A stretch of DNA of 26,213 nt from an archaeon (GTDB lineage: Archaea > Nanobdellota > Nanobdellia > Pacearchaeales > GW2011-AR1): NCBI GenBank assembly GCA_043810775.1, contig JBDRNU010000023.1, positions 1 to 26,213 on the forward strand. The letters run 5' to 3'. Position numbers and translations under genes: made by a program. The notes below the pieces were generated by a model. It was not told the origin of the DNA, ran no database searches, and was given only the letters and a program-made list of their open reading frames with translations. How positions within the stretch are numbered: position 1 is the stretch's first letter; every line of letters starts with the position of its first letter. This document shows, piece after piece, positions 4,714-24,104 of this stretch.

Positions 4714-5274
4714 TTAATCAATTTTTTCAGTTTTAACTTCTGTTTCTGGTTTTTGCTTTCCAACTTTTTTAATGTCACGGATTTCACATAAGCCAAGAGG
4801 ATAGATTTTTTTTAGCTTTTGACTCATTGGCTTTTGCAGTCTTGACGATATAATTTCAGAGAATATTTCTTCGGTTTTTTTATCTCTTACATATTCCATT
4901 AGATATTCTTTAGTAGCTATTCTTAGGGCTTTCCTCACACTTCTATGAACTTTTTTTCGTGTAATTAGTAGTGTTTTTATTCTGATTTTGTAGTCTTTGG
5001 CATCAGTTTCAAATGAATCTTCCACATAGCTAGTAGATTTCCTCATCATTCTTCTGATAAAATAAGGCATGACTAGAAGCCTAATTGTTTCTGCCACTAA
5101 TTTTTTATCTTCAATTTTTATTTTAAAAGTAGCTTCAATACTTTTCCCCCTTAGCTGCCTAGTTAGATCAAGCTTAATGTTTCTTCCTTCTACATCTTTT
5201 GGCTCTTCAGCTAAAACTTTAATTTCAGTTTTTATTAGTGGTATCTGAACTTCTAAAAATTTTTTCTTTGCCAT
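4714..5274 (-). CDS. rps3ae: 30S ribosomal protein S3Ae (eS1)
   Basis: GR-x-I-x-x-DL, YFIRRMMRK-x-TS-x-VE and KKIYPL-x-x-CEIR motifs. ATG at 5274 (MAKKK) is preferred over TTG at 5283. Confidence 0.9.
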   Translation of the reverse strand: MAKKKFLEVQIPLIKTEIKVLAEEPKDVEGRNIKLDLTRQLRGKSIEATFKIKIEDKKLVAETIRLLVMPYFIRRMMRKSTSYVEDSFETDAKDYKIRIKTLLITRKKVHRSVRKALRIATKEYLMEYVRDKKTEEIFSEIISSRLQKPMSQKLKKIYPLGLCEIRDIKKVGKQKPETEVKTEKID

Positions 5275-5280
5275 GCCTGA

Positions 5281-5321
5281 CAACCTAACGGTTTTCTTGG
5301 CTAACTTTCCCTTGAATTAGC
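5281..5321 (-). promoter_or_regulatory. Putative structured leader RNA motif, copy 1 (upstream of rps3ae)
   Basis: Minus strand GCUAAUU-CAAGGGAA-AGUUAGC hairpin, A-rich linker, AACC-GUUA-GGUU hairpin, then G plus 6 nt before AUG. A second copy lies at 15577-15616. Confidence 0.65.
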
Positions 5322-5340
5322 TTAAATTTAATTATCATTT

Positions 5341-5670
5341 TTATTGTTTTGCAACCTTGTCCTCTATTTGAATTTTACTTACTCTTCTTGAGTTTTTAGC
5401 TTGCTTTGATTTTTTGCATTCCTTACAAGTATAAATTAAAACTAACCTTTTTGTAGATTTTGTTTTTCTCTTCCATTTAGTTGCTGCTGGTTTACTTCCC
5501 CATCTTCCCTTATTTCCCATTCCTCTTGCAAGCCCCCTTTTCTTAGCTCTTTTAAGAGCACCCCTTTTTAGAGTTCCTCTCTTAGAGCCTGTGCTAACTA
5601 GATTTATTTTCTGTTCTGTTTTTTTCCTGCAATAAGGGCAGTATCTATTAGTTTTTTTAGGAACTTTCAT
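5341..5670 (-). CDS. rpl44e: 50S ribosomal protein L44e (eL42)
   Basis: MKVPK...YCPYC...K-x-TK...Y-x-CKEC zinc ribbon; very basic; GGAGG just upstream. Confidence 0.93.
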   Translation of the reverse strand: MKVPKKTNRYCPYCRKKTEQKINLVSTGSKRGTLKRGALKRAKKRGLARGMGNKGRWGSKPAATKWKRKTKSTKRLVLIYTCKECKKSKQAKNSRRVSKIQIEDKVAKQ

Positions 5671-6974: not shown

Positions 6975-7047
6975 TGGGCCTGCGCAGAATTGAACTGCGA
7001 ATCTCATCGACGTCAACGATGCGTCATAACCACTAGACCACAGGCCC
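6975..7047 (-). tRNA. tRNA-Val(GAC)
   Basis: Minus strand has GGGCCTG/CAGGCCC acceptor, CATCG-TT-GAC-GT-CGATG anticodon arm, and CGCAG-TTCAATT-CTGCG T-arm. CCA is not encoded. Confidence 0.95.
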
Positions 7048-7139: not shown

Positions 7140-9065
7140 ATGTATAGTAGAAAAAGAGGAACTCGCGCCCTGAGTTGTGATTATAATAAAAATATACTCA
7201 ACTCAAAACGCTCGCAAATAACAGTATTTGTAATTATAGCTATAGTAATAGTATGTGTTATTGGAGCTTATTTTGTATTAAAAGACAGATTATTTATAAA
7301 TGAAATTCCAGTTGTTTTCCAGCCAGTTGAAGAGTACTATCTTTCTTGCATTGATGATTTAGGCAGAACAGGAGCTGAAATATTGGGCGAGCAGGGAGGA
7401 TATATTTACTTGCCAGAATTTGAGGCAGGAAGTGAATATAGGCCTTTTTCATCCCAGCTTAATTTTTATGGTACAGGTGTTCCTTATTGGTATTATGTTT
7501 CTGGAAATAATATTATAAAAGAGCAGAAACCAACTAAGAGCTCTATGGAAAGTGATTTGGAGAAATATATTGAAGAAAATATTGGTGAGTGTGATTTTCG
7601 TGAGTTTACAGCTAGGGGATTTGATATTGAGGTTGGAGATAGTGTAAATACAGATGTTTCCATAAGTAATAATAAAATAAGTGTTAATCTAGCCAGAACT
7701 ATTTCAATGAGCTATGGAGAAGAGTCTGCAGTAATAAAGGAGCATAAAAAAGATATAAGCAGCAGTTTGGGAAGGTTTTACAGTCTTGCTACAAAAATTT
7801 ATGATAGTGAAAAACAAGAGGCTTTTCTTGAAAATTATGCTGTTGATGTTTTGAGATTATATGCTCCTGTTGATGGTGTAGAGCTAAGCTGCAGCCCAAA
7901 AGTCTGGCTTTATACTGAGATTGAAGAAGATTTGAAGGCAGCTCTGGAAAGTAATATAATGGCTATAAAATTAGAAGGAGATTATTATTCACTGTCAAAG
8001 AAACAGCATGATTATTTTGTCCATGATATTGGTGTAAATGTTGATAGCAATATAAATTTTCTTTATTCTAAGGATTGGCCTTTTAGGTTTGAGGTGTGGG
8101 AAAGCAATAATGGTGTGTTGATTGGAAAGCCTGTTGGGATGCAAGAAGGTTTAGGGATACTAGGATTTTGTTATGTGCCTTATCATTTTGTATATGATTT
8201 GAATTTTCCAGTTATGATACAGATTTACAATGGCGAGGAATTATTCCAGTTTCCTGTTGCTGTAATTATTGATAAGAATAAACAAAGGGAAGCCCTGCCT
8301 GTTGAAAGCACTTTGGGAGAAGCTGAACCAGAAATGTGCAAGTATAAAACTCAGGAAATTACAGTTTATACTTATGATGTTAATCTGGAGCCAGTTGAAG
8401 CTGAAGTAATTTATAATTGTCTTGGAGCAAGCTGTGATATTGGAAGCACCAGGATTGAAGGAAGTGATGCAATTCTTGTTGGTAGTTTTCCACAGTGCAT
8501 AAATGGATTTGTTTATGCTAATGCAGAGGGATATGCCAGCAACAGGGAAATTTTTTCAACTAATAAAGATGGAGTTGTAAATATTGTGTTAGACAAGCTA
8601 TATAATTTGGAGATTGAATTTACAATTGATGAGAAGATTAGTGAGGATAGAGCTATTATTTCTTTTGTTTCTGAAGATAATACTCAGACAGTTTCTTATC
8701 CTGACCAGGATAGTGTAAAACTTTCTGAGGGGATGTATAATATAAGTGTTTATGCTTATAGTGATTCGAAAGTTACTATTCCTGGATTAGATGAAGAGAT
8801 TTGCACTGAGGTGCCTAAGGAGGGATTGCTGGGAGTTTTTGGAGTTAGTGAAGAAAAGTGCTTTGATGTTAATACTGAGTCTCAGGAGATTTCAAATAGT
8901 ATCTCTGGAGGAGGAAATCAGGAGGAGTATTTAATTGAGTCACAGCTACAGACTGGCAAGATTAAGATTAATGTTGATAGTATTCCTGTTCCAGATAGTA
9001 TTGATGATTTGCAGGACGCTTATAATTTAGTGGAAGTTTTAGGAGTGGATATTGGGTTTGGTTAA
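7140..9065 (+). CDS. Large Cys-containing surface protein with class III (prepilin/archaellin-type) signal peptide
   Basis: KRS|QITVFVIIAIVIV N-terminus (basic-basic-small|Q plus hydrophobic helix), followed by an acidic, beta-rich ectodomain with many Cys. Confidence 0.75.
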   Translation: MYSRKRGTRALSCDYNKNILNSKRSQITVFVIIAIVIVCVIGAYFVLKDRLFINEIPVVFQPVEEYYLSCIDDLGRTGAEILGEQGGYIYLPEFEAGSEYRPFSSQLNFYGTGVPYWYYVSGNNIIKEQKPTKSSMESDLEKYIEENIGECDFREFTARGFDIEVGDSVNTDVSISNNKISVNLARTISMSYGEESAVIKEHKKDISSSLGRFYSLATKIYDSEKQEAFLENYAVDVLRLYAPVDGVELSCSPKVWLYTEIEEDLKAALESNIMAIKLEGDYYSLSKKQHDYFVHDIGVNVDSNINFLYSKDWPFRFEVWESNNGVLIGKPVGMQEGLGILGFCYVPYHFVYDLNFPVMIQIYNGEELFQFPVAVIIDKNKQREALPVESTLGEAEPEMCKYKTQEITVYTYDVNLEPVEAEVIYNCLGASCDIGSTRIEGSDAILVGSFPQCINGFVYANAEGYASNREIFSTNKDGVVNIVLDKLYNLEIEFTIDEKISEDRAIISFVSEDNTQTVSYPDQDSVKLSEGMYNISVYAYSDSKVTIPGLDEEICTEVPKEGLLGVFGVSEEKCFDVNTESQEISNSISGGGNQEEYLIESQLQTGKIKINVDSIPVPDSIDDLQDAYNLVEVLGVDIGFG

Positions 9066-9066
9066 A

Positions 9067-12000
9067 ATGTTGTTAGATAAGATAAATAGTTATAGAATTT
9101 TCCTAGTTATGGCTTTGATTTTAATTGCTCAGGTTGGAGCTGTTTGTGCTTTAACTTCTTATGCTTCCAGCTCTTCGAGTACTAGTTTTTCAACTGCTGG
9201 AACTCAGGCTCAGTTTACCTCGCCGAATAGGTATTCTGGATATTCACAACAGTATGCGAGCTTGTACTGGCCTGCTATTACTGACCCTGATAAGTGCGAG
9301 GCTACAAGTGATTTTATTATGAGTGTAAGGCCTTTTTCTTGTTCTCCTTCTGTAGTGAGAAGTGACTTGCTAGAGGAACAGAGTGTTCCTGTTTTTTGCA
9401 AGGTGGATGTTGTTAAGATTAATCCTTTGATTGATGTCAGCCAGATTAAGTCAGTTAAATTTAAAAATAATCCTGGAGATGACAGCAGTTATGTTAGTGG
9501 AGTGAGCTTTCATCCTAACAGGGAGGCAATTTACACAAGGCAGGGAGTGATAGATAATCCTTTTATTAATGATGTGGGTTATGTTGTTGTCTTATTGAAA
9601 AGAATTCAGAATGAAGAGGGCATGCCTGATTCAGTTAGATTGAATTTGACAGGAGTTATCCAGTTTGATGCTGAGGGATTTTTTGGAGCTGGAGAGCAGT
9701 ATTTTTATCTTGACCCTGAGTTTGACTGGATGACTGGAGATAGCTATAAGGAAAATTCTTTTTTTAAGGGCAAGGGATATTTAAGAGCTGACTGGATTGA
9801 TGGAACTTCAGCTGGAATTTCAATTTATAGCGACCAAGATACTAGATTATCCACTTTAACTTTGCAAAAAGGCGAAACTTCTAAAGTAGTTTACTTGCCA
9901 GGATTTTACTGCAAGGCAGGAGTTCAGGTTCAGCTAGAAGACTTGCAGGCTAATATTAAGAAGGCAAGGCTTGAAGTAGATGGAGATGATATTTGGGTGG
10001 GGGAGGGGGAGAGATTTTTAGATGGCTTATGCCAGGTTACTAGCATAGTGTATGATAAAAATAAGCAGAGAGAAAAAGGAAATGTAAAAGTTTATTGTGC
10101 TGGAAAAACTTATACTCTGGAATATGAAAATAAAATTGATAATGGAGTTGTAAGTGAGGATAATAAGTGTGAAAATATAAACCCTTCAGAAGAGGTTATG
10201 CAGAAATATGAGGCTGCTGAAAAATATGCTTATGAGGTTAGAGGATTATATGGAAGTGCAATTGATGAGCAGACAGGAGAGATTTGGGCTGCTAAAGCTT
10301 TGCTTGAATTAGGAAGATTAGCTGATGAGATAGGATTAAAGGCAGATGCTATGGATATTTATCAAGATGTTATTGATGAGTTTCCAGGAAGCAATGCTGC
10401 TGATGAGATTGAGAAAAATGACTTAATAGACAGTGTTTGCAGGCCAAGCACTAGCTATGATGAGCATTTTATTAAGCTGAAGAGAGTTTCTTTTCCAACT
10501 GATTCTAATGCTTCTTTTAGTGTTATAAAAGATGGAAGCACTACTATTCAAGGCAAGGATAAGCAAGTGACTGAAAATGTGATGTTTGCAGACAATAGAT
10601 TTAGAATTGAGAAGCTTTATGCTGACAGGGTTGATTTGTATTATTATAAGCAGGGAACCAGTGACAGTGAACAATTTACGCTGAGCTTTTCTGAAAAAAG
10701 CAGGACTTTTATTGATGGGGAATTTAAATATGAGATTACACTGGAAGATATTAATTACAAGCAAATTGCGAAGGTGAAGCTGATTTCTAAGATGCCTAAT
10801 GAGTATTCTGAATCTGATTTTACAGTTGAAATTGGAATTGAAAAGCGAGCTATTAAGCTTAGCCCTGAGAAGACTCAGGAAATGATTAATAATTTAAATG
10901 ACAGCATAGAAAGATGGGAAGAAATAACTGAAAATTTAGGAAATGTTGTCAAGGGAATGAAAGGAGTTTGTCTGGCTACTTCTACTGTCTTGTTTGTAAA
11001 GAATTTTATTGCTAATACTGGCGGAAGAGCTACTGCAAGGCAGAAGGTTATGCCTATTTATTATAAAAAGTGCGAGCAGAAAGTTGGCAGTGACAGGGGG
11101 GCAATGGATGCTTGTTTAGTAGGAGAAGAAGCCAATATTAAGAGAGATATTGATGCATATACAAGGATAATTGATGGAACTGGAGGGGTTGGTGGGGTGA
11201 ATAAGGCAGTTATTGATACTCAAAATAATAATAAAATTCCTGGAAGTGATGCTATTGACAGGGGAGCAACTGCTGACAGCTTGAGAACAAGTTTTTTTTC
11301 AAATAAACCTGTTAGTTTCTCTCTGGGAAGTCAGACAATTACAATTAAAGATACAGAACTTCAAAAAGCAAGCACTACACAATTAAGAGATTTAAAAGCT
11401 TATCAAGAGGTATTAAACAGCGATGCTAGCACAGATTTTAAGGAAAATGCTTATGCTGAAATTAGCAAAATTCATACCCAGCTAGAATTAAAAGAAGGAG
11501 TAATTAGAGCAGATGAAGATAGTCTTTTTGACCCAGAAGCAAAAAGTGAGAAGCAGTTTGATTGGCTTGACAGAGTCAGGGTAGAGTATTATCCAAGTGG
11601 AAAGCATAAGAATTTAGCTTATGTTGTGCCTATTCCAAAGTTCTATGATAGCAAGACTGGATTTTATGTTATTGTTGATGAGGGGGGATATGCTAGTGAA
11701 AAGGCTTATACTGATGCAGGAGACTTGAAAAGATATACTATTAAGAATCTTGGAAGTGATGGACAGCCTGATTTTGCCAATGATATGGGTTATACTTATG
11801 ACATTAACCAGAGACTAGATGCTGGGCAGAAAATACTTGGATTGAGCCATGAGGCTTCCAAGCAGTTAGTTACTGATGCTTCTCAGGCTATTTATCAGGC
11901 AAATAGAAATTATGGGAGGTCAAGATTTAGCTTGTTTGAGCAGGAAGTAAGAGTTAATCCTGCTGGAAAATCAACTGATTATGTAAGATGCCAGGACTTT

Positions 12001-14541
12001 ATGAGCCCTAGTGACTGTCATATTTTGTTTAATGTTTGCGACCCTGTATTATGCCCTAGCAGCAGATGTGATTTAGGGGGAGCTTATAGAGTTGATAATG
12101 TTATTCAGTCTGGAATAATTGGAAGCATTGCTTTATGCCTGCCTAATGTTAAGGATGGAATAATTATTCCGGTTTGTTTAAGTGGAATTCATGCAGGCTT
12201 GGAAAATTATGTTTCAATACTAAAAGCTCATAGAGACTGCTTGCAGGAAAGCCTGAATACTGGAAGACAGGTTGGGGTTTGCGATGAGATTTATAGTATT
12301 TATTTGTGCGAGTTTTTCTGGAGGCAGATAGGTCCGTTTATGGATGCGCTGATTCCCAAGCTAATAGAGTATTCGTTTGGGCAGGGATCTAGGGGTGGCG
12401 GGGAGTATTTAACTGTTGAAGATGCCTGGACTGATTTAGAAAAAGGAACTGACTGGATGAAGCAGGAGTATGGGGTAAATTCCTGGAATGCATTTAATGC
12501 AAGAAGCACAGATGATATTGGGAGTGAGATTTGCAAGAATTTTATTTCTACCAGATATCCTGCTAGCAAGGATTTTTTTGATAATTTATTAGAGCCAGAC
12601 AGCCCTGTTCAGTTTAGCGCCTGGTTTGATGAGATTCCATTTTCAGAAGCTACTGTTCCAGCTACTTCACAGTATAAGGTGTTTTATCATATTTATGCTG
12701 GAAAAGATGATGGAGCTTATTTTCAGGTTTATTTGAAGACTCCTCCTGATTATGCTTATGTTGGAGTTTCAGATACTATTGTAGTAAGAACTGGATATAC
12801 TCCTCGAGGTTCAAGCACTAGCGAAACTAAGGATTTTACAGCTCCAGCAGGATATCAGGAGCTGTGTGTTAGAATAAATGGAAAGGATGAGTGCGGTTTT
12901 GGCAAGGTATCGACAAGCTTTGCTGTGAATTATGTTTCTGATTTATATTATCAGGAGCAACTGGATAAAGAGGATATTGCGGGCAGTGATGAGTGTATTA
13001 GCGGAGAGAATTCTCTGCTAGGAGCTTTAAGGCCTAATATTCAGGAAGGAGTTGATACTGCTATTAATCCTGAACTTGAGAAAAAAGGAGTTGTTAGGAT
13101 TTGCTCTACTAAGAATCCTGGAATTGGCGTTGAAGAGACTAGGTGGAAGAAAGTTGGCTATTGCGATGATGAGGAAATGATTTGCTGGCTTGACAAGAGA
13201 AGTGTTGAAGATGTTATTAAGAACAAGAATATTGCTTCAAGCATTGTTGAAGATACTGGGGCTGTTAAAACTGTGATTGATGAGAGTGAAATCTGGACAA
13301 TGGAAAAGGTTGGAGAGGTTTTTGATAATTCTGAACTTTTGTTTTTTGATATTAAAAATGAAAGAAAGAAAGTTGGTGATGCTGAGACTATTACTGCAGT
13401 TAATAATATGATTGCAAGTTTAGATGATGTTCAAGCTCACTCATATAATTATGTTGCAGCTGAAGCTGTTTACTGGCAGTATAAGCTTTATGATGCTTAT
13501 ACTAGCAAGTTGTATGAAGCAAGAAAGCCAAGCAGCGGGGTGGTTGGGGGAGAGCCGACTATTAGCGGGACTACTGAGACTCCGGTTGTTAGTAGTGTGT
13601 CTATATTTGAATATAAAGATGGTAAAGTTAGTGGAAACTTGTTTTATAAGTTTGATAGTGAATGGTATTTTGCTACTAATAAAAACGGACCCTGGTATAA
13701 AATTGATGAATTAGATATAGCTACAAATGATTATGGGGATAGTGCTTCTTTTTTGACTAGATTAAAAGCAAATAAAAATAGTTATGTAAGGGGAGTTGAA
13801 GAGCTTGTTAGTAAGTTTATTGTTGATAGTAGTAGTTGTACTCTTTTTTGTCCAGCGGTTGAAGTTACTAAAAGCAGTAATGTGAAAAGTTGGGGGAAAA
13901 GTGATATTTCTAGTTCTGCTAGTATGGCTAAAGCTGAAATTACTAGAGAAATTTTAGATTTTACTGGGGGTGGTGATTTAGGTGGGTCTGTTAAAGAAGA
14001 TAATAAAAAAGTCATAGTAATTGATCCTGGGCATGGTGGAGATAGTCTAGGTGCTATTTCTTCTATTGATGGAACTAAGGAAAAAGATGTTAATCTTCAG
14101 ATTGCATCAGCTTTGAAGAATGAATTAATAACAGCAGGGTATAGGGTTATTATGACTAGAGAAAGGGATATTAGTGTTAATCTTCAAGATAGAGTAACTA
14201 TCGCTAAAGAAAATAATGCTAATTATTTCGTAAGTATTCATGCAAATTCTGCTGAGGATTGCACAAATGTAAAAGGTGTTGAAGTTTATTATAGTAATAA
14301 TAGAGATTTAGAACTGGCAAATTCTATTTTAATACAACTTTCTAATTTAGGTTTTGAAAATAGGGGGGTGAAAGAAGATAGTCAATCTCAATATAGAGAT
14401 TTGTACGTGCTTCAAAATACTGAAATGCCATCTGTTTTGGTTGAGGTAGGATTTCTTTGCAATCAAGCTGACCTAACTAAAATTAAAAGTACAGCAAGTG
14501 TTGCGGAAGCTATTAGTAATGGGGTATCCTCTGTTGTTTGA
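9067..14541 (+). CDS. Giant secreted Cys-rich multidomain protein with C-terminal N-acetylmuramoyl-L-alanine amidase (Amidase_3) domain
   Basis: Hydrophobic signal region; TPR-like segment (~10200-10410); coiled coil (~10860-10960); Cys-rich core (~11990-13190). C-terminus (~14005-14541) has IDPGHGG, EKDVNL, TR, L-x-x-R, FVSIHANS, GVEVYY, LYVL and PSVLVEVGF. ATG 9067, 1 nt after the upstream stop, is preferred over TTG 9052. Confidence 0.9.
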   Translation: MLLDKINSYRIFLVMALILIAQVGAVCALTSYASSSSSTSFSTAGTQAQFTSPNRYSGYSQQYASLYWPAITDPDKCEATSDFIMSVRPFSCSPSVVRSDLLEEQSVPVFCKVDVVKINPLIDVSQIKSVKFKNNPGDDSSYVSGVSFHPNREAIYTRQGVIDNPFINDVGYVVVLLKRIQNEEGMPDSVRLNLTGVIQFDAEGFFGAGEQYFYLDPEFDWMTGDSYKENSFFKGKGYLRADWIDGTSAGISIYSDQDTRLSTLTLQKGETSKVVYLPGFYCKAGVQVQLEDLQANIKKARLEVDGDDIWVGEGERFLDGLCQVTSIVYDKNKQREKGNVKVYCAGKTYTLEYENKIDNGVVSEDNKCENINPSEEVMQKYEAAEKYAYEVRGLYGSAIDEQTGEIWAAKALLELGRLADEIGLKADAMDIYQDVIDEFPGSNAADEIEKNDLIDSVCRPSTSYDEHFIKLKRVSFPTDSNASFSVIKDGSTTIQGKDKQVTENVMFADNRFRIEKLYADRVDLYYYKQGTSDSEQFTLSFSEKSRTFIDGEFKYEITLEDINYKQIAKVKLISKMPNEYSESDFTVEIGIEKRAIKLSPEKTQEMINNLNDSIERWEEITENLGNVVKGMKGVCLATSTVLFVKNFIANTGGRATARQKVMPIYYKKCEQKVGSDRGAMDACLVGEEANIKRDIDAYTRIIDGTGGVGGVNKAVIDTQNNNKIPGSDAIDRGATADSLRTSFFSNKPVSFSLGSQTITIKDTELQKASTTQLRDLKAYQEVLNSDASTDFKENAYAEISKIHTQLELKEGVIRADEDSLFDPEAKSEKQFDWLDRVRVEYYPSGKHKNLAYVVPIPKFYDSKTGFYVIVDEGGYASEKAYTDAGDLKRYTIKNLGSDGQPDFANDMGYTYDINQRLDAGQKILGLSHEASKQLVTDASQAIYQANRNYGRSRFSLFEQEVRVNPAGKSTDYVRCQDFMSPSDCHILFNVCDPVLCPSSRCDLGGAYRVDNVIQSGIIGSIALCLPNVKDGIIIPVCLSGIHAGLENYVSILKAHRDCLQESLNTGRQVGVCDEIYSIYLCEFFWRQIGPFMDALIPKLIEYSFGQGSRGGGEYLTVEDAWTDLEKGTDWMKQEYGVNSWNAFNARSTDDIGSEICKNFISTRYPASKDFFDNLLEPDSPVQFSAWFDEIPFSEATVPATSQYKVFYHIYAGKDDGAYFQVYLKTPPDYAYVGVSDTIVVRTGYTPRGSSTSETKDFTAPAGYQELCVRINGKDECGFGKVSTSFAVNYVSDLYYQEQLDKEDIAGSDECISGENSLLGALRPNIQEGVDTAINPELEKKGVVRICSTKNPGIGVEETRWKKVGYCDDEEMICWLDKRSVEDVIKNKNIASSIVEDTGAVKTVIDESEIWTMEKVGEVFDNSELLFFDIKNERKKVGDAETITAVNNMIASLDDVQAHSYNYVAAEAVYWQYKLYDAYTSKLYEARKPSSGVVGGEPTISGTTETPVVSSVSIFEYKDGKVSGNLFYKFDSEWYFATNKNGPWYKIDELDIATNDYGDSASFLTRLKANKNSYVRGVEELVSKFIVDSSSCTLFCPAVEVTKSSNVKSWGKSDISSSASMAKAEITREILDFTGGGDLGGSVKEDNKKVIVIDPGHGGDSLGAISSIDGTKEKDVNLQIASALKNELITAGYRVIMTRERDISVNLQDRVTIAKENNANYFVSIHANSAEDCTNVKGVEVYYSNNRDLELANSILIQLSNLGFENRGVKEDSQSQYRDLYVLQNTEMPSVLVEVGFLCNQADLTKIKSTASVAEAISNGVSSVV

Positions 14542-15383: not shown

Positions 15384-15569
15384 TTATTTTTTCTGCTGTA
15401 TTTTTACCCCAAGTTCTTCCAATCGCTTAAGATGAGCCTGCATTAGCTGTTCTGTAATTTGAGCCATCTTTATCAATTCGTTTCTCTCATTGATTAGTGT
15501 AGATAAAGAACCTTTATGATAACCAATTTCTTCTTCCTTGGACATTGCTGATTCTTCTTTTTTAGCCAT
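15384..15569 (-). CDS. Small helical/coiled-coil hypothetical protein downstream of tfb
   Basis: EEIGYHKGSLSTL-x-x-ERNEL...H-x-x-x-L-x-ELGV amphipathic helices; preceded by the leader motif; co-oriented with tfb. Confidence 0.75.
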   Translation of the reverse strand: MAKKEESAMSKEEEIGYHKGSLSTLINERNELIKMAQITEQLMQAHLKRLEELGVKIQQKK

Positions 15570-15576
15570 TTTAAAA

Positions 15577-15616
15577 CAACCTAACGGTTTTTTTATATTT
15601 TCCCTTGAATATGCTT
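15577..15616 (-). promoter_or_regulatory. Putative structured leader RNA motif, copy 2
   Basis: Minus strand AUAUU-CAAGGGAA-AAUAU hairpin, A-run, AACC-GUUA-GGUU hairpin, then G plus 7 nt before AUG 15569. Confidence 0.65.
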
Positions 15617-15625
15617 CAAGAGTGA

Positions 15626-16561
15626 TTATTTTTTCTTTTTCAGTTTTTCTTCAGCCTCTTTAATCCTAAGCTTTTCTGTAAGCTCTAAACGGTCAATTAG
15701 TTCTTTATATCTGTTTCTAATTGTCACTTCTGTTATTCCTGCAACGTCAGCAACTTCTCTTTGTGTTTTCTTTTCGTCATTGATTAGGGCTGCAACATAT
15801 AATGCAGCAGCTGCAATTCCTGCTGGTCCTCTTCCAGAAGTTAGTTCAGATATATCTGCTTTTTTTAAGATTCTAAGAGCTTCATTTTGTGTTTTTGGGG
15901 AGAGATGCAAGATTGAGGCAAATCTTGAGATATAATCTTTAGGGCTTGAAGGAGTTACTTTAATATTAAGTTTTCTTACTATAAACCTGTAGGTTCTTCC
16001 GATTTCTTTTCTTTCTACATCAGAAGCATTTGCAATTTCATCCAGAGTTCTAGGGATATTGTAAGATCGGCAGGCTGCGTAGATGCACGCGGCAATTACT
16101 GATTCCATTGAACGACCTCTGACTAGACCTCGCTGAAGCACATAATTATAAACTCTTGAAGATTCGTCTCTTACTACTGTTGGCAGATTCAAGAAACTGG
16201 CAACTCTTCTAAGTTCAGCCATAGCTAATCTTAAATTTCTTTCAATACTAGTAGAAACTCGCTCTTGCCACTTTTTTAGCCTTAGAAATTTACGAGTCTG
16301 GCCTGTTTCGAGTTTATAAATATCAGAAATCTCGCCTACATTAGTTGTAAGGCCTTTGTCGAATTTTTGCATGCTCATTGGAGCTCCACCACGACCTTTT
16401 TTCTCGCTTTTATCAAACTGTCCGTGTGGGTCTTGACCAGTATCTACCATCTTTTCTTCTACTACTAGGCCACAATCATTACAGATAACCTCTCCCCTTT
16501 GCTCATCATAAGTAAGATGAATACTGTTGCATTCAGGGCATCTTTTTATATAAGCATTCAT
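15626..16561 (-). CDS. tfb: Transcription initiation factor IIB (TFB)
   Basis: CPEC...GEVICNDCGLV zinc ribbon, ERNL-x-x-A, RGRS, and cyclin repeats with GRGPAGIAAAA and TQREVA-x-x-AG-x-TEVTIRNRYKEL. Confidence 0.98.
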   Translation of the reverse strand: MNAYIKRCPECNSIHLTYDEQRGEVICNDCGLVVEEKMVDTGQDPHGQFDKSEKKGRGGAPMSMQKFDKGLTTNVGEISDIYKLETGQTRKFLRLKKWQERVSTSIERNLRLAMAELRRVASFLNLPTVVRDESSRVYNYVLQRGLVRGRSMESVIAACIYAACRSYNIPRTLDEIANASDVERKEIGRTYRFIVRKLNIKVTPSSPKDYISRFASILHLSPKTQNEALRILKKADISELTSGRGPAGIAAAALYVAALINDEKKTQREVADVAGITEVTIRNRYKELIDRLELTEKLRIKEAEEKLKKKK

Positions 16562-17952: not shown

Positions 17953-18855
17953 TTAAATCTCAATAGACATTAGGTCGTGAGCTATTTTTACATTGTTAAA
18001 TACTTTTTTAGCTTCTTGAAGGATAGCTGATTCATTATTTTCATATCTTTGAGAAAGATGACTTAAAATCAAGGATTTTGATTTTGATTTTTTTGCTATT
18101 TCTGCTGCTTGCTTGGCTGTGAGGTGCTTATGTTCTCGGGCAAGGGCTTCTCCATTTTCTGAATTAGCAAGAAAAGTTGATTCTGTAATAAGCAAGTCTG
18201 AATTACTGGCAATTTTTAGTGCAGAGGGATTCATTAGTGTATCCATTATAAATGTAATTTTTCTGCCTTTCTGCAAGTAGGTTAGGTCTGAAGCTTTTAT
18301 TTTTTTACCCTGCCAAGTAATATCTTTGCCTTGAGCTAGCTGGGAAATTATTTTCCCTTGCAATTTATATTTTTTTACCTTGGATTTGTCTATTCTTAGC
18401 TTAGGTTTTTCTATAAAGGTATAAGCATTGCAGGGAGTTCCGTGAGACATTGCTTCTGCTTCAATGTAAAAATCCTTAGTATCAAGAAACTTTCCTGAAA
18501 CTTCGTGAATTTCTACTTTTACTTTTTCCTTGAATACAAACATCTTGTAAATCAGATTAAATCTGAGCTTTGTGCCTTTTGGGCCGTAGACATGAAGTGT
18601 TCTATTATAGTTATTCAGGGCAAGAGTTTGCAGTAATCCTGGCAATCCAAGAATATGATCGCCATGCCAGTGTGTAATAAGTATCCTAGTTAGTTTACAA
18701 GGATTTAACTTGGCTTTTCTGAATTGTCTCTGAGTGCCTTCTCCACAGTCAACTAGGATTTTTTCAGAGCCATAGCTAAGTAAAATGCTGGTATGATTAC
18801 GTTTTGCAGTTGGAATAGCCTGAGCTGTTCCAAGAAATGTAATTGGGATTTTCAT
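17953..18855 (-). CDS. rnz: Ribonuclease Z (tRNA 3' processing)
   Basis: FLGT...PT-x-x-RN, DCGEGTQ, THWHGDHILGL, flexible exosite arm, DT, ESTF, HLT and HLSQRY motifs. Confidence 0.96.
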   Translation of the reverse strand: MKIPITFLGTAQAIPTAKRNHTSILLSYGSEKILVDCGEGTQRQFRKAKLNPCKLTRILITHWHGDHILGLPGLLQTLALNNYNRTLHVYGPKGTKLRFNLIYKMFVFKEKVKVEIHEVSGKFLDTKDFYIEAEAMSHGTPCNAYTFIEKPKLRIDKSKVKKYKLQGKIISQLAQGKDITWQGKKIKASDLTYLQKGRKITFIMDTLMNPSALKIASNSDLLITESTFLANSENGEALAREHKHLTAKQAAEIAKKSKSKSLILSHLSQRYENNESAILQEAKKVFNNVKIAHDLMSIEI

Positions 18856-18911: not shown

Positions 18912-21900
18912 ATGAAGAAAAGAGGAATTTTGGTATTTGTTATTATATATTTTGTCGTATTAGTTTATGCAGGAAGTTTTCAGGATTTGATTCAAAGTGA
19001 TTTTTCTGGGAATTATAATAATACTTTCTACAATACTTCTGGATTTATCCAGGTGGGGAATAATTCTCTTGCGAATATTACCAATGATATAACTGAGATG
19101 AGTGGAAGTGAGCTTGGTTTAGTTTCTTATTGGAGAATGAATTCAAGCTCTTGGAGTGGAAGTTCTGAAGAAGTTATTGATGTTCTTGGAAATAATCATG
19201 GAACAGCAAGAAATGGAGCAACCACTGCTAGTGGATTGTTTGGAAATGCAGGAAGTTTTGACGGAACTAATGATTATATTGATGTGGGAAATTCTAATTC
19301 AGTGAGAATAACTCAGAATATAACTTTATCAGCTTGGATAAAATTTAATTCAATACCTACTGGAACTAATGGGGATTCAATTATATGCAAGAATGAGGGT
19401 GGAGGATATGGATTGCTAGCTAATGAGGCAAGTGATGGAAAAATACAGACTTATTTTCATATTGGTGGAAGTTATAAAAATGTTGGTGTAAGTTTAAGTG
19501 GATTATCTGCTGGCACCTGGTATTATGTTGTTGTAACTTATAATGGCAGTTCAGTTGATTTTTACTTAAATGGAGTAAGGCAGCAGACTGTTGCTGCTAG
19601 TGGAAGCATATCTGATTTGCCTACTGTAAACTTGACAATTGGTGCAAATCCAGCTCCAACTATTGCAACTTATACTAACTTTTTTGATGGATTAATAGAT
19701 GAAGCTGCTGTATGGAATGAAGCTTTGAATTCAAGCGAAATTCTTAGGTTATATCAAAAAGGAAATACTTCTTCCCAGCAGGAATCTCAGCCAACAACTG
19801 GAACATATGAATCTTCAATAAAAGATGCAGGAAGCATTGTAAATTGGACTAATATTTCTTGGAATGGTTTAACACAACAGGAAAATCAGGGAATTACAAC
19901 TCAACAAGGAAATGTTTTGTTAATGCATTTAGAAGGAAATGCAAATGATGAAAATGGAATAAACAATGGAATGCTAATAAATTCTCCTACAAGTGTAGCT
20001 GGAAAGAGTGGGTTTGGATATTATCTAAATGGAGTTAATCAGTATATTGAGATTAATGATCATAATAGTCTAGATTTGAATTCTGATTTTTCTATAGGAT
20101 TATGGGTTAATTTTACTAGTTTGCCATCTACAGGACAGTGGCAGGGACTAATGGCAAAGGGAGGAGCAGGAGATAGCCCGGCTGATTTAAATCATAATTT
20201 TTTCCTGACTTTAGATAACAATATGGGGTGGGGGGCTGGAATAGGGACAACTTGGGGTTATGAAGATAGTGCTGGAGCTAATTATCAGACAAGGTATCAG
20301 TGGACTCCTGTACTTGGAGTTTGGTATCATATTGTAGGTGTTTTTAATGAGAGTGCAAATACAATGACTCTTTATATAAATGGAAGCCAGGTAGCTCAGG
20401 CTAGTGATGCAACTGCTATTCCTATTACAAATACTCATCCTGTATTTATTGGAAGAAATTTAAATGGCTCTACACCTGTTTATTATTTAAATGCGGTTGT
20501 AGATGACGCTTTTATAGCAAATAAATCTCTAGGAGCAAGTGAAATTCAGAGCATTTACACTAATAGCAATACAGTTACTTCAAATGTTAATTTGCAGTTA
20601 AGGATAAGCAGTGATAATTCTTCTTGGAGTGATTATTCAAGTTTTTATAATTCTGCTTCTAATTTAAATTTAAGTAGTTCAAGATATGTACAGTATAGGG
20701 CTTACTTTACAGAAGCAAGCGCTAAATTATATAATGTCAGTTTTTTTTATGATTCTTTAGGAGAGTTGAGTGTTTCTTTAGACAGTCCAGAAGATAATTA
20801 TTTAACTAATCAGTATAATAATATAAATATCACCTGTTCTGCTTCTTCGACTTCACAGCTTGTCAATGTAACTGCTTATTATGATAAGTTTGGCTGGCAG
20901 GAAGTTGAGCCAGCAAGACAGATTTCAGGGACAAGCAATACATCAACTTTCACTTTAAATGAAATTTCTTCTGCAATAAAGTGGAACTGTTATTTTTGCA
21001 GTGCTGATGGGAATTGTTCCTTTGCTTCTAATAATAGGACAATAATAGGGGATATTCAGGCACCGACGATAAATATAGTTTCTCCAGAAGAGAATCACAT
21101 AAGCTCGAGCTTAGGTGCAGATTTTATTTTTAATGTAAGTGATAATAGGGCTACAAGTTTGTCTTGCATATTAATAATAAGTAATATTGAAAAAGCAAGC
21201 AACTCAAGTGTAGTTTCAGGCTTGAATACTATTTTATCTGCTATCTTATCTAATGGAAATTACTCTTGGCAAGTAAACTGTTCTGATGGAATTAATTCAG
21301 CCATAAGTGAAGCAAGAAATATAAGCCTAGCTTCAACTTATACTCCTTTTTGGGCAAAGTCAAATACACATACTCATACTACAAATTCTGATGGAGATAG
21401 CAGCCCTGCAACTGTGGTAAGCTTGTATAAAAATTTAGGATATAGCATATTGGCAATAACTGACCACGGATATGTAACAAATTGCACACCTTTTACTAAT
21501 TTAAGTGCTAATTTTATTTGTGTCAGTTCTGAAGAGTGGACTTCAACGAAGCATATCACTAGGATAAATGTAAGTTCGCCTTATAATAATAATATCATTA
21601 ATATGCAAAATGCTGTAAATGCTGCAAATAGTGGGGGGGGATTTGCAATTGCTGCTCATCCTAATTGGAGTTCAACAATATGGAGTGTTTCTGATTTAAC
21701 TTCTTTGCAAGACTATACTGCTATGGAAATTTATAATAAGGTTATTGAAAGGTTAACTCCAGATCCTTATGCTGTTAAAAAGTGGGATGAGGTATTAAAA
21801 ACCGGGAAAAAAATATTTGGTGTTGCTGCAGATGATATGCACCAGGTTAGTGTTGATTTAGGATATGGATGGACTAAAGTTTATATGCCTCAATTTACAA

Positions 21901-24104
21901 AACAAGATTATATAAATTCAATGAGGATAGGATATTTTTATTCAAGCCAGGGACCTAGTATGGATATAGGACCTTTTGCTTTAGTTTGTGATGAAGATGG
22001 AGGGCATCATATGGGGGAAAGTGTGAACTGTTCTTCTATTAGTGTAAATGCCACAATTTCTGCGACTAATTCAAGCTATAAAATTCAGAATATAAGTTTG
22101 ATTAAAAATGGAGTTGCAATAAGCACAAAAACAGACTGTGCTTCAGAGCAGGACTGCAGTTTTAGTTATTCTGAAAATGTTTCTGCTTCTGGCTATTATA
22201 GGTTGGAGGCAGTGGATAGTAAAAATAAACAGATTTGGAGCAATCCTATATGGGTCACAAAAATAGCTCTTCAAACAACAATAACTATACATTCCCTTCA
22301 AAATAATTCAAATACAAGTGATTATACTCGTTTGTTAAATGTGAGCTTAAATCAAGAAGCTAGTTTATGGTATAATCTAAACGGGGGGAATAACATAACT
22401 TTATGTGGAAGCTGTTCTGCTTACCAAGAGTACTTAACTTTAAGGGAGGGAAGTAATACAATTAATGTTTTTTCAAATAATTCTGATAATATCTTAGTTA
22501 AAAATCAATTGTTAATTAGATTAAATTTTAATAAAACTTTATTTGAAAATTTCTCAGATAATTCTTCAATACTATCAACAAGCAATATTTACTGGAATAA
22601 TAATAAGATGAGTATGAATAGTACAAATATGTTCGGCAACTTTGTTTTTAAAGATATTATTAGTTCAAATAATATTACTGGTTTTAGAGTTTCATGGGTT
22701 GAGAATAATACTGAAAATGCAAAAGGAGAGGGGCAAAGAGTTCCAGTAATTTTAAAATATAAGTTTGGAGATTCTGCTTGGCAGAGTACGGATCCTATTG
22801 GAAATTATATTGTTAATGGATCTAGTATTTCTGGACTAAACTCGAAGAATCTTTCACTTATGATTGATATTGAGAAAAATGATTTTACTCCTGTTGACCT
22901 AATTAATTTTACTATTCATTGGAGTGAGTATACAGTACCTTTAATCACAAATGTTTCAGCTAGTTCTGTTACTTTGAGTTCAGTAATTATAAGATGGAAT
23001 ACTGATTCTCCTTCTAATTCAAGTGTTTATTACGGGACTACAACTTCTTTGGGCAGTGAAATAAATTCAAATAATTCACTAACTTCCCATTCTATTACTT
23101 TAACTGGTTTGAGTCCTTCAACAGGTTATTTTTACAAGGTTCAAAGCTGTACTGAATCAAGCTGTTCACGAGATCCTCAGGAATCTTATCCCCCATATTC
23201 TTTTACAACCCAATCTGTTTCTACTGGAGACGATGACGATTCCGGAAGCAGTGGAGTTAGCTCTGGTGGAGGGGGTGGAGGAGGAGCTGTTCCTGCAATT
23301 AGTCAGGAAGGGGGATTAAAGCTTTTAGTATCTTTAGTTAGTGAGGTTACAATGAGGGCTGGCGAGAAAAAAGCAATTTCAGCTAATATCAAGAATATGG
23401 GGGGCACTTTTCTTAATGACTGCAGGCTGAAAATAAGCGGGGAAACTGCGACTTGGATATCTTCGAACTCGGTTGAGAGTATGGCTCAGGGCCAGGAAAT
23501 TAGCTTTCAGTTTTTAATAAGTGTTCCGAGTGATGCTGATGAAAAGAAGTATAATTCTTATTTGAAAGTTGATTGCAAGGAGGGGGAGAAAGAAGTAAGT
23601 TTTAATATTAATGTTATTCAGAGTTCTTTTAGTATTGAAATTAATAGTTTATCTGAGGATAAAGGCAGAATAACTATTAAATATTTGCTGAAGGAGAATT
23701 CTGGATTAGACCAAGATTTGGAAATTAAATTATGGTTGACAGATCCAAAAGGCACTAAGCTAACTGAAGGAAGTGATAGTGTAAGTTTGAAAGCTGGTGA
23801 ACAGATTGAAAGAGAAGCTATTTTTGAAGTTCCTCCAAATTCAATTGGAGAATTTATAGCTCATATTCAAGCAGTTTCTGGTGATAATTCTAATTTAGTA
23901 TCAGAGTCTATTTTAGTTGGTAGTGGGGGCTTAACTGGAAGAGCTATATTGGGTGGAGGCAATACCACTATCTTGTCAGTTATCTTTATAATAGGTATTG
24001 GAGGATTTCTTGCATATTTTGTTTTAAGGAAAATAATGAAAAATACTGCTAAACAAGATAGAACAGGTTATGTAAAATTAAAATTAGGAAAGAGAAAACA
24101 CTAA
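18912..24104 (+). CDS. Membrane-anchored multidomain surface protein: 2x LamG/concanavalin-like, Ig-like, PHP metallohydrolase, FN3-like, Gly linker, Ig/CARDB-like, C-terminal TM
   Basis: MKKRG signal peptide. LamG patterns (FDG-x-x-DYI...W...WY-x-V...Y-x-NG...F-x-G-x-IDE) at ~19110-19770 and ~19910-20560. PHP motifs HTHT-x-x-SDG, ITDH, AHP, E-x-YN and DDMH at ~21350-21950. FN3-like W-x-TD...H-x-I-x-LTGL-x-P-x-T-x-Y at ~22935-23210. Many N-x-S/T sequons. Confidence 0.85.
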   Translation: MKKRGILVFVIIYFVVLVYAGSFQDLIQSDFSGNYNNTFYNTSGFIQVGNNSLANITNDITEMSGSELGLVSYWRMNSSSWSGSSEEVIDVLGNNHGTARNGATTASGLFGNAGSFDGTNDYIDVGNSNSVRITQNITLSAWIKFNSIPTGTNGDSIICKNEGGGYGLLANEASDGKIQTYFHIGGSYKNVGVSLSGLSAGTWYYVVVTYNGSSVDFYLNGVRQQTVAASGSISDLPTVNLTIGANPAPTIATYTNFFDGLIDEAAVWNEALNSSEILRLYQKGNTSSQQESQPTTGTYESSIKDAGSIVNWTNISWNGLTQQENQGITTQQGNVLLMHLEGNANDENGINNGMLINSPTSVAGKSGFGYYLNGVNQYIEINDHNSLDLNSDFSIGLWVNFTSLPSTGQWQGLMAKGGAGDSPADLNHNFFLTLDNNMGWGAGIGTTWGYEDSAGANYQTRYQWTPVLGVWYHIVGVFNESANTMTLYINGSQVAQASDATAIPITNTHPVFIGRNLNGSTPVYYLNAVVDDAFIANKSLGASEIQSIYTNSNTVTSNVNLQLRISSDNSSWSDYSSFYNSASNLNLSSSRYVQYRAYFTEASAKLYNVSFFYDSLGELSVSLDSPEDNYLTNQYNNINITCSASSTSQLVNVTAYYDKFGWQEVEPARQISGTSNTSTFTLNEISSAIKWNCYFCSADGNCSFASNNRTIIGDIQAPTINIVSPEENHISSSLGADFIFNVSDNRATSLSCILIISNIEKASNSSVVSGLNTILSAILSNGNYSWQVNCSDGINSAISEARNISLASTYTPFWAKSNTHTHTTNSDGDSSPATVVSLYKNLGYSILAITDHGYVTNCTPFTNLSANFICVSSEEWTSTKHITRINVSSPYNNNIINMQNAVNAANSGGGFAIAAHPNWSSTIWSVSDLTSLQDYTAMEIYNKVIERLTPDPYAVKKWDEVLKTGKKIFGVAADDMHQVSVDLGYGWTKVYMPQFTKQDYINSMRIGYFYSSQGPSMDIGPFALVCDEDGGHHMGESVNCSSISVNATISATNSSYKIQNISLIKNGVAISTKTDCASEQDCSFSYSENVSASGYYRLEAVDSKNKQIWSNPIWVTKIALQTTITIHSLQNNSNTSDYTRLLNVSLNQEASLWYNLNGGNNITLCGSCSAYQEYLTLREGSNTINVFSNNSDNILVKNQLLIRLNFNKTLFENFSDNSSILSTSNIYWNNNKMSMNSTNMFGNFVFKDIISSNNITGFRVSWVENNTENAKGEGQRVPVILKYKFGDSAWQSTDPIGNYIVNGSSISGLNSKNLSLMIDIEKNDFTPVDLINFTIHWSEYTVPLITNVSASSVTLSSVIIRWNTDSPSNSSVYYGTTTSLGSEINSNNSLTSHSITLTGLSPSTGYFYKVQSCTESSCSRDPQESYPPYSFTTQSVSTGDDDDSGSSGVSSGGGGGGGAVPAISQEGGLKLLVSLVSEVTMRAGEKKAISANIKNMGGTFLNDCRLKISGETATWISSNSVESMAQGQEISFQFLISVPSDADEKKYNSYLKVDCKEGEKEVSFNINVIQSSFSIEINSLSEDKGRITIKYLLKENSGLDQDLEIKLWLTDPKGTKLTEGSDSVSLKAGEQIEREAIFEVPPNSIGEFIAHIQAVSGDNSNLVSESILVGSGGLTGRAILGGGNTTILSVIFIIGIGGFLAYFVLRKIMKNTAKQDRTGYVKLKLGKRKH

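Follow-up and report, generated by a model that had tools for sequence, protein, structure and literature searches.

What role is played by a short hairpin-forming motif that occurs twice within 26 kb of an archaeal genome, each time in front of an unrelated gene? The question is raised by contig JBDRNU010000023.1 from an archaeon of the Pacearchaeales (assembly GCA_043810775.1), analysed over its positions 1 to 26,213 (the window). In a sequence-only reading of the window two copies of a two-hairpin leader RNA were drawn on the minus strand, at 5321-5281 (copy 1) and 15616-15577 (copy 2), and internal translation initiation, protein-mediated repression, mRNA processing and ligand sensing were offered as possible functions. 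It is reported here that the pair are members of a lineage-specific, duplicative family of transcribed leader cassettes of about 55 nt. The base of the cassette's terminal helix lies 1-3 nt before the RNA that comes next, which may be an mRNA (at its AUG), a tRNA (at position 1) or a further cassette, and mRNA processing is the function that we favour from the list. The best reading of the element, which we put forward tentatively, is that of a 5'-boundary or 'punctuation' signal that would be cut in the RNA just 3' of the terminal helix. For the DPANN archaea, which are uncultivated, knowledge of gene-expression signals comes from sequence alone; what is described below is evidence for a strongly leaderless lineage with rigid promoter geometry, together with a widespread covarying RNA element that appears to mark the 5' limit of tRNAs as well as of core genes for translation and replication.

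A family of leader cassettes

The sequences of both copies match the original drawing. The shared 15-mer is identical at 5281-5295 and 15577-15591, the 11-mer around the supposed loop is the same at 5306-5316 and 15599-15609, and GGTTG is followed by 6 nt (copy 1) or 7 nt (copy 2) before the ATG. Each copy also precedes, as had been claimed, the second gene of a co-oriented pair (L44e and S3Ae for copy 1, TFB and an open reading frame (ORF) of 61 aa for copy 2), and in both cases occupies the stop-start junction. Whether two copies in 26 kb exceed chance cannot be told from the window alone (two matches were also obtained in 11 of 100 shuffles when 3 mismatches were allowed), and the whole genome was therefore examined. 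This genome (G000; 995,483 bases in 26 contigs, 33% G+C, 80% complete) contains an exact 13-mer from the motif four times, and 12 times with 2 mismatches allowed, several of these sites directly preceding tRNA genes. A covariance model built from 16 copies out of four genomes found 19 copies in G000, with copy 2 as the top-scoring match (72.6 bits) and copy 1 matched at 5279-5336 (55.2 bits), and 29 in a comparison genome of the same genus (G001). At E<=0.01, matches were obtained in 33 of 61 genomes, or 32 of 60 genera, of the family, with 0 to 29 copies per genome, and in 22 genomes of the family, counted by hand from the table, the best E-value was <=1e-4. Within the order, 23 of 75 genomes of this family had matches at E<=0.001 compared with 4 of 45 in other families. 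The E-values are rough and some weak matches are probably false. All collected matches amount to 131 distinct copies, of which 25 could not be anchored on the terminal helix, several of these (L047, L049, L102, L127 and L129) looking false-positive by eye; all stay in the denominators, and the related genomes are non-independent samples.

The sequence-only reading did not recognise the motif as a known family, and this view was upheld. A search of the window against Rfam 15 at the gathering threshold returned only three tRNAs, four loci with arrays of the cassette returned tRNAs only at E<=1, and positions 5230-5360 of the window gave three chance-level matches (9.7-15.7 bits) at E<=10. In the literature no such element was found in Pacearchaeota, Woesearchaeota or DPANN, a provisional result as the search covered open-access text only.

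Architecture and RNA structure

From 5' to 3' the cassette consists of box 0 (ATCA..TGA..), box 1 (AAGGGAAA type), a spacer and box 2, with extra hairpins sometimes inserted. The RNA has its first bases (AUCA...) at a predicted transcription start or close to one, followed by a short covarying helix in box 0, a purine-rich single-stranded box 1, a variable spacer and a terminal A/U-rich helix (helix 2). Box 1 is near-invariant and appears single-stranded, and its core A-R-R-G-G-R-R is present in 116 of the 131 copies.

The second of the two hairpins originally drawn is real and covaries; it is not a helix of 4 bp, as proposed, but reaches 10-11 bp with a conserved A×G mismatch. An 11+11-nt stem anchored on CC-loop-GG could be placed in 106 of the 131 copies, among which 63 arm pairs are distinct, around a loop of 2-5 nt. 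At position 6 the pairs are A-U 44, G-C 14 and G-U 4, at position 7 A-U 28 and G-C 27, and at position 10 A-U, U-A, C-G and G-C are all used, while the mismatch at position 5 is seen in 30 of the 63. The pairing observed at positions 5-10 was reached by none of 2000 partner shuffles. A dedicated covariation tool applied to the 63 distinct sequences gave 79.9% paired compared with 70.2% after shuffling (0/500), a percentage inflated because each copy was taken in its best register and had to show 7 or more of 11 pairs; the diversity of pair types is not inflated by this choice. Cells changed on both sides numbered 95 where 38 were expected (0/500 shuffles), the covariation score was 0.281 compared with 0.07-0.13 for slid registers, and compensatory changes occur at 7 of the 11 pairs. 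Selection for RNA structure, as claimed for the motif, thus finds support in the covariation of hairpin 2. The arm pairs differ even among copies within G000.

The first hairpin fared differently. The flanks that were thought to form its stem are paired to 54% in 91 distinct copies and to 54% after shuffling, 1814 of 3000 shuffles being as good. In copy 2 the minimum-energy fold pairs the supposed loop with the upstream box and not with these flanks; the resulting 8-bp helix between box 0 and box 1 was rejected as a general feature (70% versus 69% shuffled, with 568 of 3000 as high), and is class-specific, with 7-8 of 8 pairs in the CC, CT and AC classes and 4 of 8 in the GG class. What box 0 does contain is a short helix XY:Y'X' around CNUGA, paired to 85% in 42 distinct copies compared with 44% after shuffling (0/5000), in which one position is C-G 15 times and G-C 14 times.

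In the window, cassette copy 1 extends over 5275-5338 (-) and fills the 67 nt that separate the stop codon of L44e from the ATG of S3Ae. Its box 1 lies at 5306-5316 (-) and contains the purine-rich core, within the exact 11-mer common to both copies; its helix 2 (5279-5296, -) has 6 pairs around one A×G mismatch with a GUUA loop and is shorter than in most copies. The fold of copy 1 is no better than that of shuffles (z -0.9), and that of its helix 2 (5275-5300) has -5.1 kcal/mol (z -1.7). Cassette copy 2 (15570-15626, -) runs from the last base of the TFB stop codon to 1 nt before the ATG of the 61-aa ORF. It comprises box 0 at 15614-15625 (-), of the form TCA-XY-CNTGA-Y'X' and holding the short covarying helix, box 1 at 15599-15609 (-), and helix 2 at 15572-15595 (-), with 9 pairs around the A×G mismatch and a GUUA loop. 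The whole copy folds at -14.1 kcal/mol (z -3.6) and its helix 2 (15571-15596) at -5.5 kcal/mol (z -2.5).

Near-perfect palindromic hairpins of the TCAGAAA...TTTCTGA type, in which the middles vary and pairing is kept, form a separate set; in some cassettes they are inserted after box 1 and ahead of box 2, and they are also found as isolated hairpins close to tRNA genes. They were seen in G000 at C9:5253-5359, C10:25058-25166, C3:60795-60900 and C25:21206-21300, and upstream of tRNA-Trp (C10:34276) and tRNA-Phe (C15:144435).

The cassette is transcribed

An element that ends next to gene starts could be taken for a promoter, a reading prompted by the copies linked to tRNA genes. Of 919 long ORFs in G000, 123 have a TATA box (TTTAWAW) whose first base lies exactly 29 nt upstream of the ATG, the counts at the neighbouring positions being 20 at -30 and 10 at -28. 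From this fixed position it follows that most mRNAs are leaderless and that promoter geometry is rigid. In ordinary tRNA genes, for example that of the window at 6975-7047 (-), the TATA box lies about 21-23 nt before the mature 5' end, and many tRNAs may be transcribed almost without a leader, although RNase P RNA is present; its presence (100 bits) rules out a reading of these flush tRNA promoters as a sign of 'life without RNase P'.

A promoter matrix was trained on the 123 G000 promoters and applied to other genera as well. The training promoters score 15.2 +/- 3.0, compared with a mean of -28.7 and a 99.9th percentile of 6.2 at random positions. In the register set by the gene start, 13 G000 copies score from -31.8 to -13.5; within +/-8 nt of it only copy 2 reaches 7.2, the other 12 scoring at most -0.8. 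Strong canonical promoters were found upstream of cassettes, with predicted starts on the cassette's first bases (14.3 at the A of ATCA before tRNA-Asp; also 19.0, 16.6, 12.3 and 10.3). Across all genera, predicted transcription starts are concentrated on ATCA, with 7 copies no more than 1 nt away on either side, and on box 1, with a minor cluster at the gene start, where 5 of 107 copies score >=5, two of them doubtful model matches. The distance from box 1 to the start ranges from 34 to 46 nt (mean 38, sd 2.5). Its variance is 6.17 compared with 5.42 for the summed parts, and the length of spacer plus loop correlates positively with that of the tail (r = +0.39). The distance is thus uncompensated, where a fixed distance from TATA box to start would need the opposite, and the spacing therefore speaks against a promoter. 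It is the gap between the base of helix 2 and the start that stays constant, at 1-3 nt before an ATG. Promoter matrix and spacing test agree on a transcribed leader element, as the sequence-only reading had it, and the promoter reading was rejected on these grounds: the cassette is a transcribed 5' leader or intercistronic spacer and not the promoter of the downstream gene.

What lies behind the cassette

Strict placement relative to start codons was part of the leader interpretation, and both the orientation of the copies and the distance of the helix base from the ATG (1-3 nt) prove to be strict, not random. With distances taken to the ends of gene models, the ATG follows helix position 10 by 1, 2 or 3 nt (9, 17 and 9 copies) in 35 of the 106 anchored copies, and a tRNA on the same strand begins 0-5 nt downstream of this position in 21. 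At least 11 anchored copies are followed by the next cassette unit: 4 were flagged by script, and 7 were added from the 40 of 106 copies classed as 'other', a class sorted by eye only. A further 6 of 106 lie in tRNA introns, three in sense and three in antisense orientation. Within G000, by manual reading, 15 of 19 copies stand directly before a same-strand gene start or another unit and three face the 3' end of a convergent gene; the full cassette is found directly upstream of 5 of the 29 tRNA genes called by ARAGORN, and its 5' half only at one. The helix is thus of practical use in annotation, since the start codon or the 5' end of a tRNA can be predicted from it with a margin of 1-3 nt.

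The genes behind the cassette are chiefly those of translation and information processing. Linked ORFs confirmed by Pfam encode S3Ae, S10 (in two genera), L11, L24e, EF-1α, an aIF2β-type domain, the SRP54 N domain, a proteasome subunit and an Mre11-like phosphoesterase; others, judged from their N-termini, presumably resemble PolB, RPA-like, Rad50-like and XPF-like proteins and RpoP. In the window, the S3Ae gene behind copy 1 lies at 4714-5274 (-; PF01015, 63.6 bits), its true ATG being at 5274 and an upstream TTG not the start, and the L44e-like gene before copy 1 lies at 5341-5670 (-; NF004425, E 5.6e-15, below the curated cut-off; PF00935, E 0.0012). A second S3Ae paralogue, 52% identical to that of the window, is present in G000 at C11:1419-1967 (+). 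Copy 2 is preceded by the TFB gene (15626-16561, -; PF00382 and PF08271) and followed by the 61-aa ORF (15384-15569, -), which belongs to no family and shows 74% identity in G001. The window also contains two ORFs that are very large for a 1-Mb genome, at 9052-14541 (+, 1829 aa) and 18912-24104 (+, 1730 aa).

Tandem arrays of the cassette have units of 57 nt x 3.9 copies in G001 and of 55 nt x 2.9 copies, with 100% identity, in another genome (G051). The units stand head to tail without spacers, which rules out a CRISPR (clustered regularly interspaced short palindromic repeat) array. At one locus of G001 (C36:7410-9092; L011, L069) a single gene of about 430 aa stands between an array of about 4 units, which stops 2 nt before the gene's ATG, and one of about 3 units, which starts on its stop codon. 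At L038 (G007:C20) a tRNA 3'-end fragment, a spacer and a cassette appear to be repeated in tandem, perhaps as the remnant of an event in which a tRNA gene was the site of duplication or integration.

Introns of 12-68 nt are present in 12 of the 29 tRNA genes of G000, and no cassette-related sequence was seen in these 12. In other genera, between one and three cassettes, in either orientation, lie within tRNA introns that are 70-249 nt long (L034 in G051, L023 in G015, L026 in G009, L050 in G019 and L109 in G043). These calls rest on ARAGORN with introns allowed; the Rfam tRNA model spans only the G009 tRNA, and a second ARAGORN run on the G009 locus found no tRNA. At C11:40010 of G000, ARAGORN calls a tRNA-Stop(tta) with an intron, and a truncated cassette stands in front of it.

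Gain, loss and mobility

Comparison of orthologous sites shows gain, loss and dispersal of the cassette between close relatives, over short time scales. The S3Ae gene was found in 54 of 61 genomes and is preceded by the cassette in 4 of 30 loci examined, with two more that are degenerate by eye. At the site of copy 1, the L44e stop in G001 overlaps the S3Ae start, so that there is neither spacer nor cassette. At that of copy 2, TFB is 97% identical between the two genomes, and its junction in G001 holds an unrelated 22-nt T-rich spacer in place of the 56-nt cassette of G000. Neither window copy thus has a counterpart at its orthologous site in G001, so that the cassette spreads. The converse is seen at tRNA-Ser(gct), where a promoter common to both genomes is followed by a 3-unit array only in G001 and remains plain in G000. 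In a further genome (G020) five near-identical copies of about 90 nt (L076, L078, L079, L081 and L082) have sharp ends and imperfect terminal inverted repeats around the cassette core, and thus resemble miniature inverted-repeat transposable elements (MITEs).

Terminal inverted repeats, which are present in this G020 subfamily, were not seen at the window copies. No target-site duplication was found at the two sites that are filled in G000 and empty in G001 (TFB/61-aa ORF and L44e/S3Ae), the spacer having been replaced. The Y1 transposase, for which PF01797 was the sole family tested, was detected in 19 of 61 genomes, G000 not among them, and co-occurs with the cassette in 12 genomes where about 10 are expected. 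A link to IS200/IS605 or to repetitive extragenic palindromic (REP) elements is therefore unsupported, as this family does not track the cassette. Mobility is in any case compatible with any RNA role.

A possible RNA boundary signal

In an organism that initiates translation mostly at 5'-terminal AUGs, 55 nt of leader, or another gene, in front would leave the AUG badly placed. The terminal helix of the cassette could act as a punctuation mark, with an endonuclease cutting just 3' of it. Such a cut would restore a 5'-terminal AUG, or the 5' end of a tRNA, for genes that lie behind another gene, as at both sites in the window, or behind an extra leader, and the cassette RNA of about 55 nt would be released, whether as mere waste of the reaction or as a functional product itself. 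The genome encodes tRNA-processing enzymes in the form of RNase Z (316 bits) and RNase P RNA (100 bits). RNase Z would be the obvious candidate nuclease because it cuts one base after an acceptor-like helix, and its gene lies in the window at 17953-18855 (-; TIGR02651, above cut-off; PF13691 and PF12706), although the link to the cassette is an inferred one. This gene is about 2.3 kb from copy 2, a nearness that is probably coincidental. The coincidence of the helix 3' end with the 5' end of the next RNA, which characterises t-elements, was found for the ends of gene models only. Neither a T-arm motif nor a T-loop was detected in helix 2 among the 63 distinct helices, and there is no tRNA-like fold, the loop being 2-5 nt.

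A broader version of the idea, which we regard as speculative and rather unlikely in its entirety, is that of a self-propagating punctuation leader that inserts precisely at +1 of leaderless genes and tRNA genes or at stop-start junctions, is transcribed from the host promoter and is then clipped by a tRNA-processing nuclease, freeing the RNA of about 55 nt and restoring a leaderless mRNA or a mature tRNA 5' end. If this were true, these DPANN archaea would build leaderless operons by RNA cutting, as mitochondria do with tRNAs. More generally, if the cut is real the cassette would be a compact and portable processing module, and the boundary signal offers a testable idea of how a leaderless organism expresses genes from operons or behind an extra leader.

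Several observations weigh against such a boundary role. RNase P RNA is present, so that tRNA 5' ends need no signal from a cassette, and a helix with a loop of 2-5 nt and no T-arm motif is a poor copy of an RNase Z substrate. The six copies in tRNA introns, three of them antisense, are not explained by it, and some copies (C9, C10 and C20 of G000) face the 3' ends of convergent genes, where no boundary needs marking. Insertion into genes without a 5' untranslated region (UTR) may by itself account for the flush placement. The selection of the best register, described above, inflates the pairing percentage of helix 2. Finally, Shine-Dalgarno (SD) matches of 6-7 nt in ORF-linked copies hint that the leader may stay on some mRNAs.

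Alternative explanations

That the leader stays on the mRNA is the essence of a translational explanation, in which AGGU or GGAGG at the junction of loop and 3' arm would be the SD sequence of an internal cistron, and the helix, perhaps with a bound protein, would tune access to it. The 16S 3' end is CCUCCU, and SD-like matches, mostly of 4-5 nt (AGGU, AGGUG), lie inside helix 2 at 12-13 nt before the ATG, the distance at which SD-like words peak in G000 as a whole. Both window copies stand before the second genes of pairs, the downstream genes are chiefly those of translation and information processing, and matches of 6-7 nt in the loop occur in 4 of 35 ORF-linked and 0 of 21 tRNA-linked copies, a difference that is not significant. 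Set against this, pairing with the 16S tail has a duplex energy of -6.23 kcal/mol in ORF-linked and -6.09 kcal/mol in tRNA-linked copies, which is no difference (p = 0.89), nor does the length of the match differ (p = 0.15); no SD tuning was thus found in ORF-linked copies, and 5 of the 35 ORF-linked loops leave a 3-nt match only. The SD-like bases are moreover buried in a helix of 10-11 bp that ends 1-3 nt before the AUG, and 21 of 106 copies precede tRNAs, while arrays and intron copies have no ORF to serve. The AGGU does lie at the usual SD distance, but inside the helix; its complementarity is no stronger before ORFs, and an mRNA-specific SD or internal-initiation device does not fit a family of which 21 of 106 copies precede tRNAs, 6 lie in introns and others form arrays. 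We consider a retained translational leader doubtful. Binding of a protein is conceivable. Ligand sensing is unlikely because cassettes occur in arrays and introns; the confinement to mRNA 5' UTRs of one pathway that is typical of riboswitches is not seen, given the 21 tRNAs, 6 intron sites and arrays. Least probable of all is a special promoter or operator, with box 1 and the spacer as transcription factor B recognition element (BRE) and TATA box and the inverted repeat as the site of a dimeric regulator. The gene start, which is the transcription start if the gene is leaderless, does lie right behind the cassette in tRNAs and mRNAs alike, the mean of 38 nt from box 1 is close to BRE geometry, and copy 2 and two other sound type-2 copies score 7.2-8.7 in a near-correct register. 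This is outweighed, in our view, by the 12 of 13 G000 copies that score at most -0.8 even within +/-8 nt, by uncompensated distances of 34-46 nt where real promoters are fixed at -29, by spacers most of which contain C or G and are not TATA-like, and by the canonical promoters found upstream of the cassette; covariation of helix 2 within one genome, where arm pairs differ, and a loop that varies from 2 to 5 nt disfavour the site of a dimeric DNA-binding protein.

There are two further explanations. The cassette may be a selfish MITE-like DNA repeat without RNA function, its hairpins serving transposition or recombination as single-stranded DNA and its copies surviving only where they are harmless: flush between a promoter and the gene that it serves, at junctions within operons or inside tRNA introns. 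The absence of both window copies from the orthologous sites of G001 despite 97% identity in TFB, the array at tRNA-Ser(gct) in G001 compared with the plain promoter in G000, the copy numbers of 0-29, tandem arrays with periods of 55-57 nt, intron copies in both orientations and the five sharply bounded copies of about 90 nt with imperfect terminal inverted repeats in G020 are all in line with this, as is the finding that copies in the same genome are more alike than orthologous copies. It is countered by the lack of a link to Y1 transposase (only PF01797 was tested), by window copies in which neither target-site duplication nor terminal inverted repeats were seen, by the excess at helix 2 positions 6-7 of G-U (3-4) over A-C (0-3), the pair that would be expected from the opposite strand, which indicates pairing in the sense strand, and by a linkage to S3Ae that recurs in at least four genera, and a repeat of this kind seems to us an unlikely account of the family. 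The other possibility is that the cassette RNA is itself the product, a small trans-acting RNA that rides on strong promoters, tRNA leaders and tRNA introns in parallel to archaeal small RNAs (sRNAs) of the C/D box class, with box 1 as its recognition surface. Box 1 is indeed near-invariant and unpaired, there are arrays with no gene directly behind them (C36 and C37 of G001) and units between divergent and convergent genes (C10 of G000), and the sites parallel those of C/D box sRNAs of N. equitans, which according to PMC3491384 occur in tRNA-sRNA dicistrons and in a tRNA intron. The C box (RUGAUGA) is present in 0 of 131 copies, which rules out identity with C/D box sRNAs; antisense copies in introns would yield a different RNA, flush placement before AUGs would not be needed, and we hold this explanation to be quite improbable.

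Comparison with known systems

Among known signals, the archaeal BRE/TATA promoter is resembled in so far as box 1 and the type-1 spacer are like the BRE/TATA words of G000 and the cassette ends at the gene start, but the cassette fails both the promoter matrix and the spacing test. Leaders that sequester the SD sequence share with it an A/U-rich helix with an internal mismatch over AGGU just upstream of the AUG, an arrangement that we take to be comparable to RNA thermometers; unlike these, the cassette also precedes tRNAs, and SD complementarity is not enriched in its ORF-linked copies.

Correia elements are substrates of RNase III and can also contain promoters. With these and NEMIS elements, with REP elements and bacterial interspersed mosaic elements, and with MITEs, the cassette has in common that it is short, dispersed, hairpin-forming and co-transcribed with its neighbours. 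The abstract of a review (PMC3184786) names MITEs and REPs as small intergenic repeats of bacteria. The cassette differs from such repeats in being co-oriented with, and flush to, gene starts, in the lack of terminal inverted repeats at the window copies and of a Y1 link, and in being archaeal and mostly confined to one family. Archaeal C/D box sRNAs, which ride in tRNA-sRNA dicistrons, UTRs and tRNA introns and are discussed as mobile (PMC3491384), are likewise of about 55 nt, multi-copy, often without a promoter of their own and situated near tRNAs and in introns. The cassette has neither C/D nor C'/D' boxes (0/131), is conserved over its whole length without variable guides and carries a long helix flush with the next gene.

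In behaviour the cassette is akin to these small structured repeats and hitch-hiking sRNAs, and as a boundary signal it may work like a t-element. A comparable case is tRNA punctuation in mitochondria, whose mRNAs are leaderless. In plant mitochondria, RNase Z acting at t-elements and acceptor-stem-like stem-loops is proposed to make mRNA 5' ends (PMC1920247). Common to both are a helix that ends next to the 5' end of a downstream mRNA and the presence of tRNA-processing nucleases. In contrast to t-elements the cassette has no cloverleaf or T-arm motif, its loop is 2-5 nt and its cleavage is only inferred; it is also multi-copy, arranged in tandem, found before tRNAs and in tRNA introns, and archaeal. 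The cassette thus shows the defining features of none of the known systems with which it was compared, and a punctuation role, if true, would be new as a mechanism in archaea.

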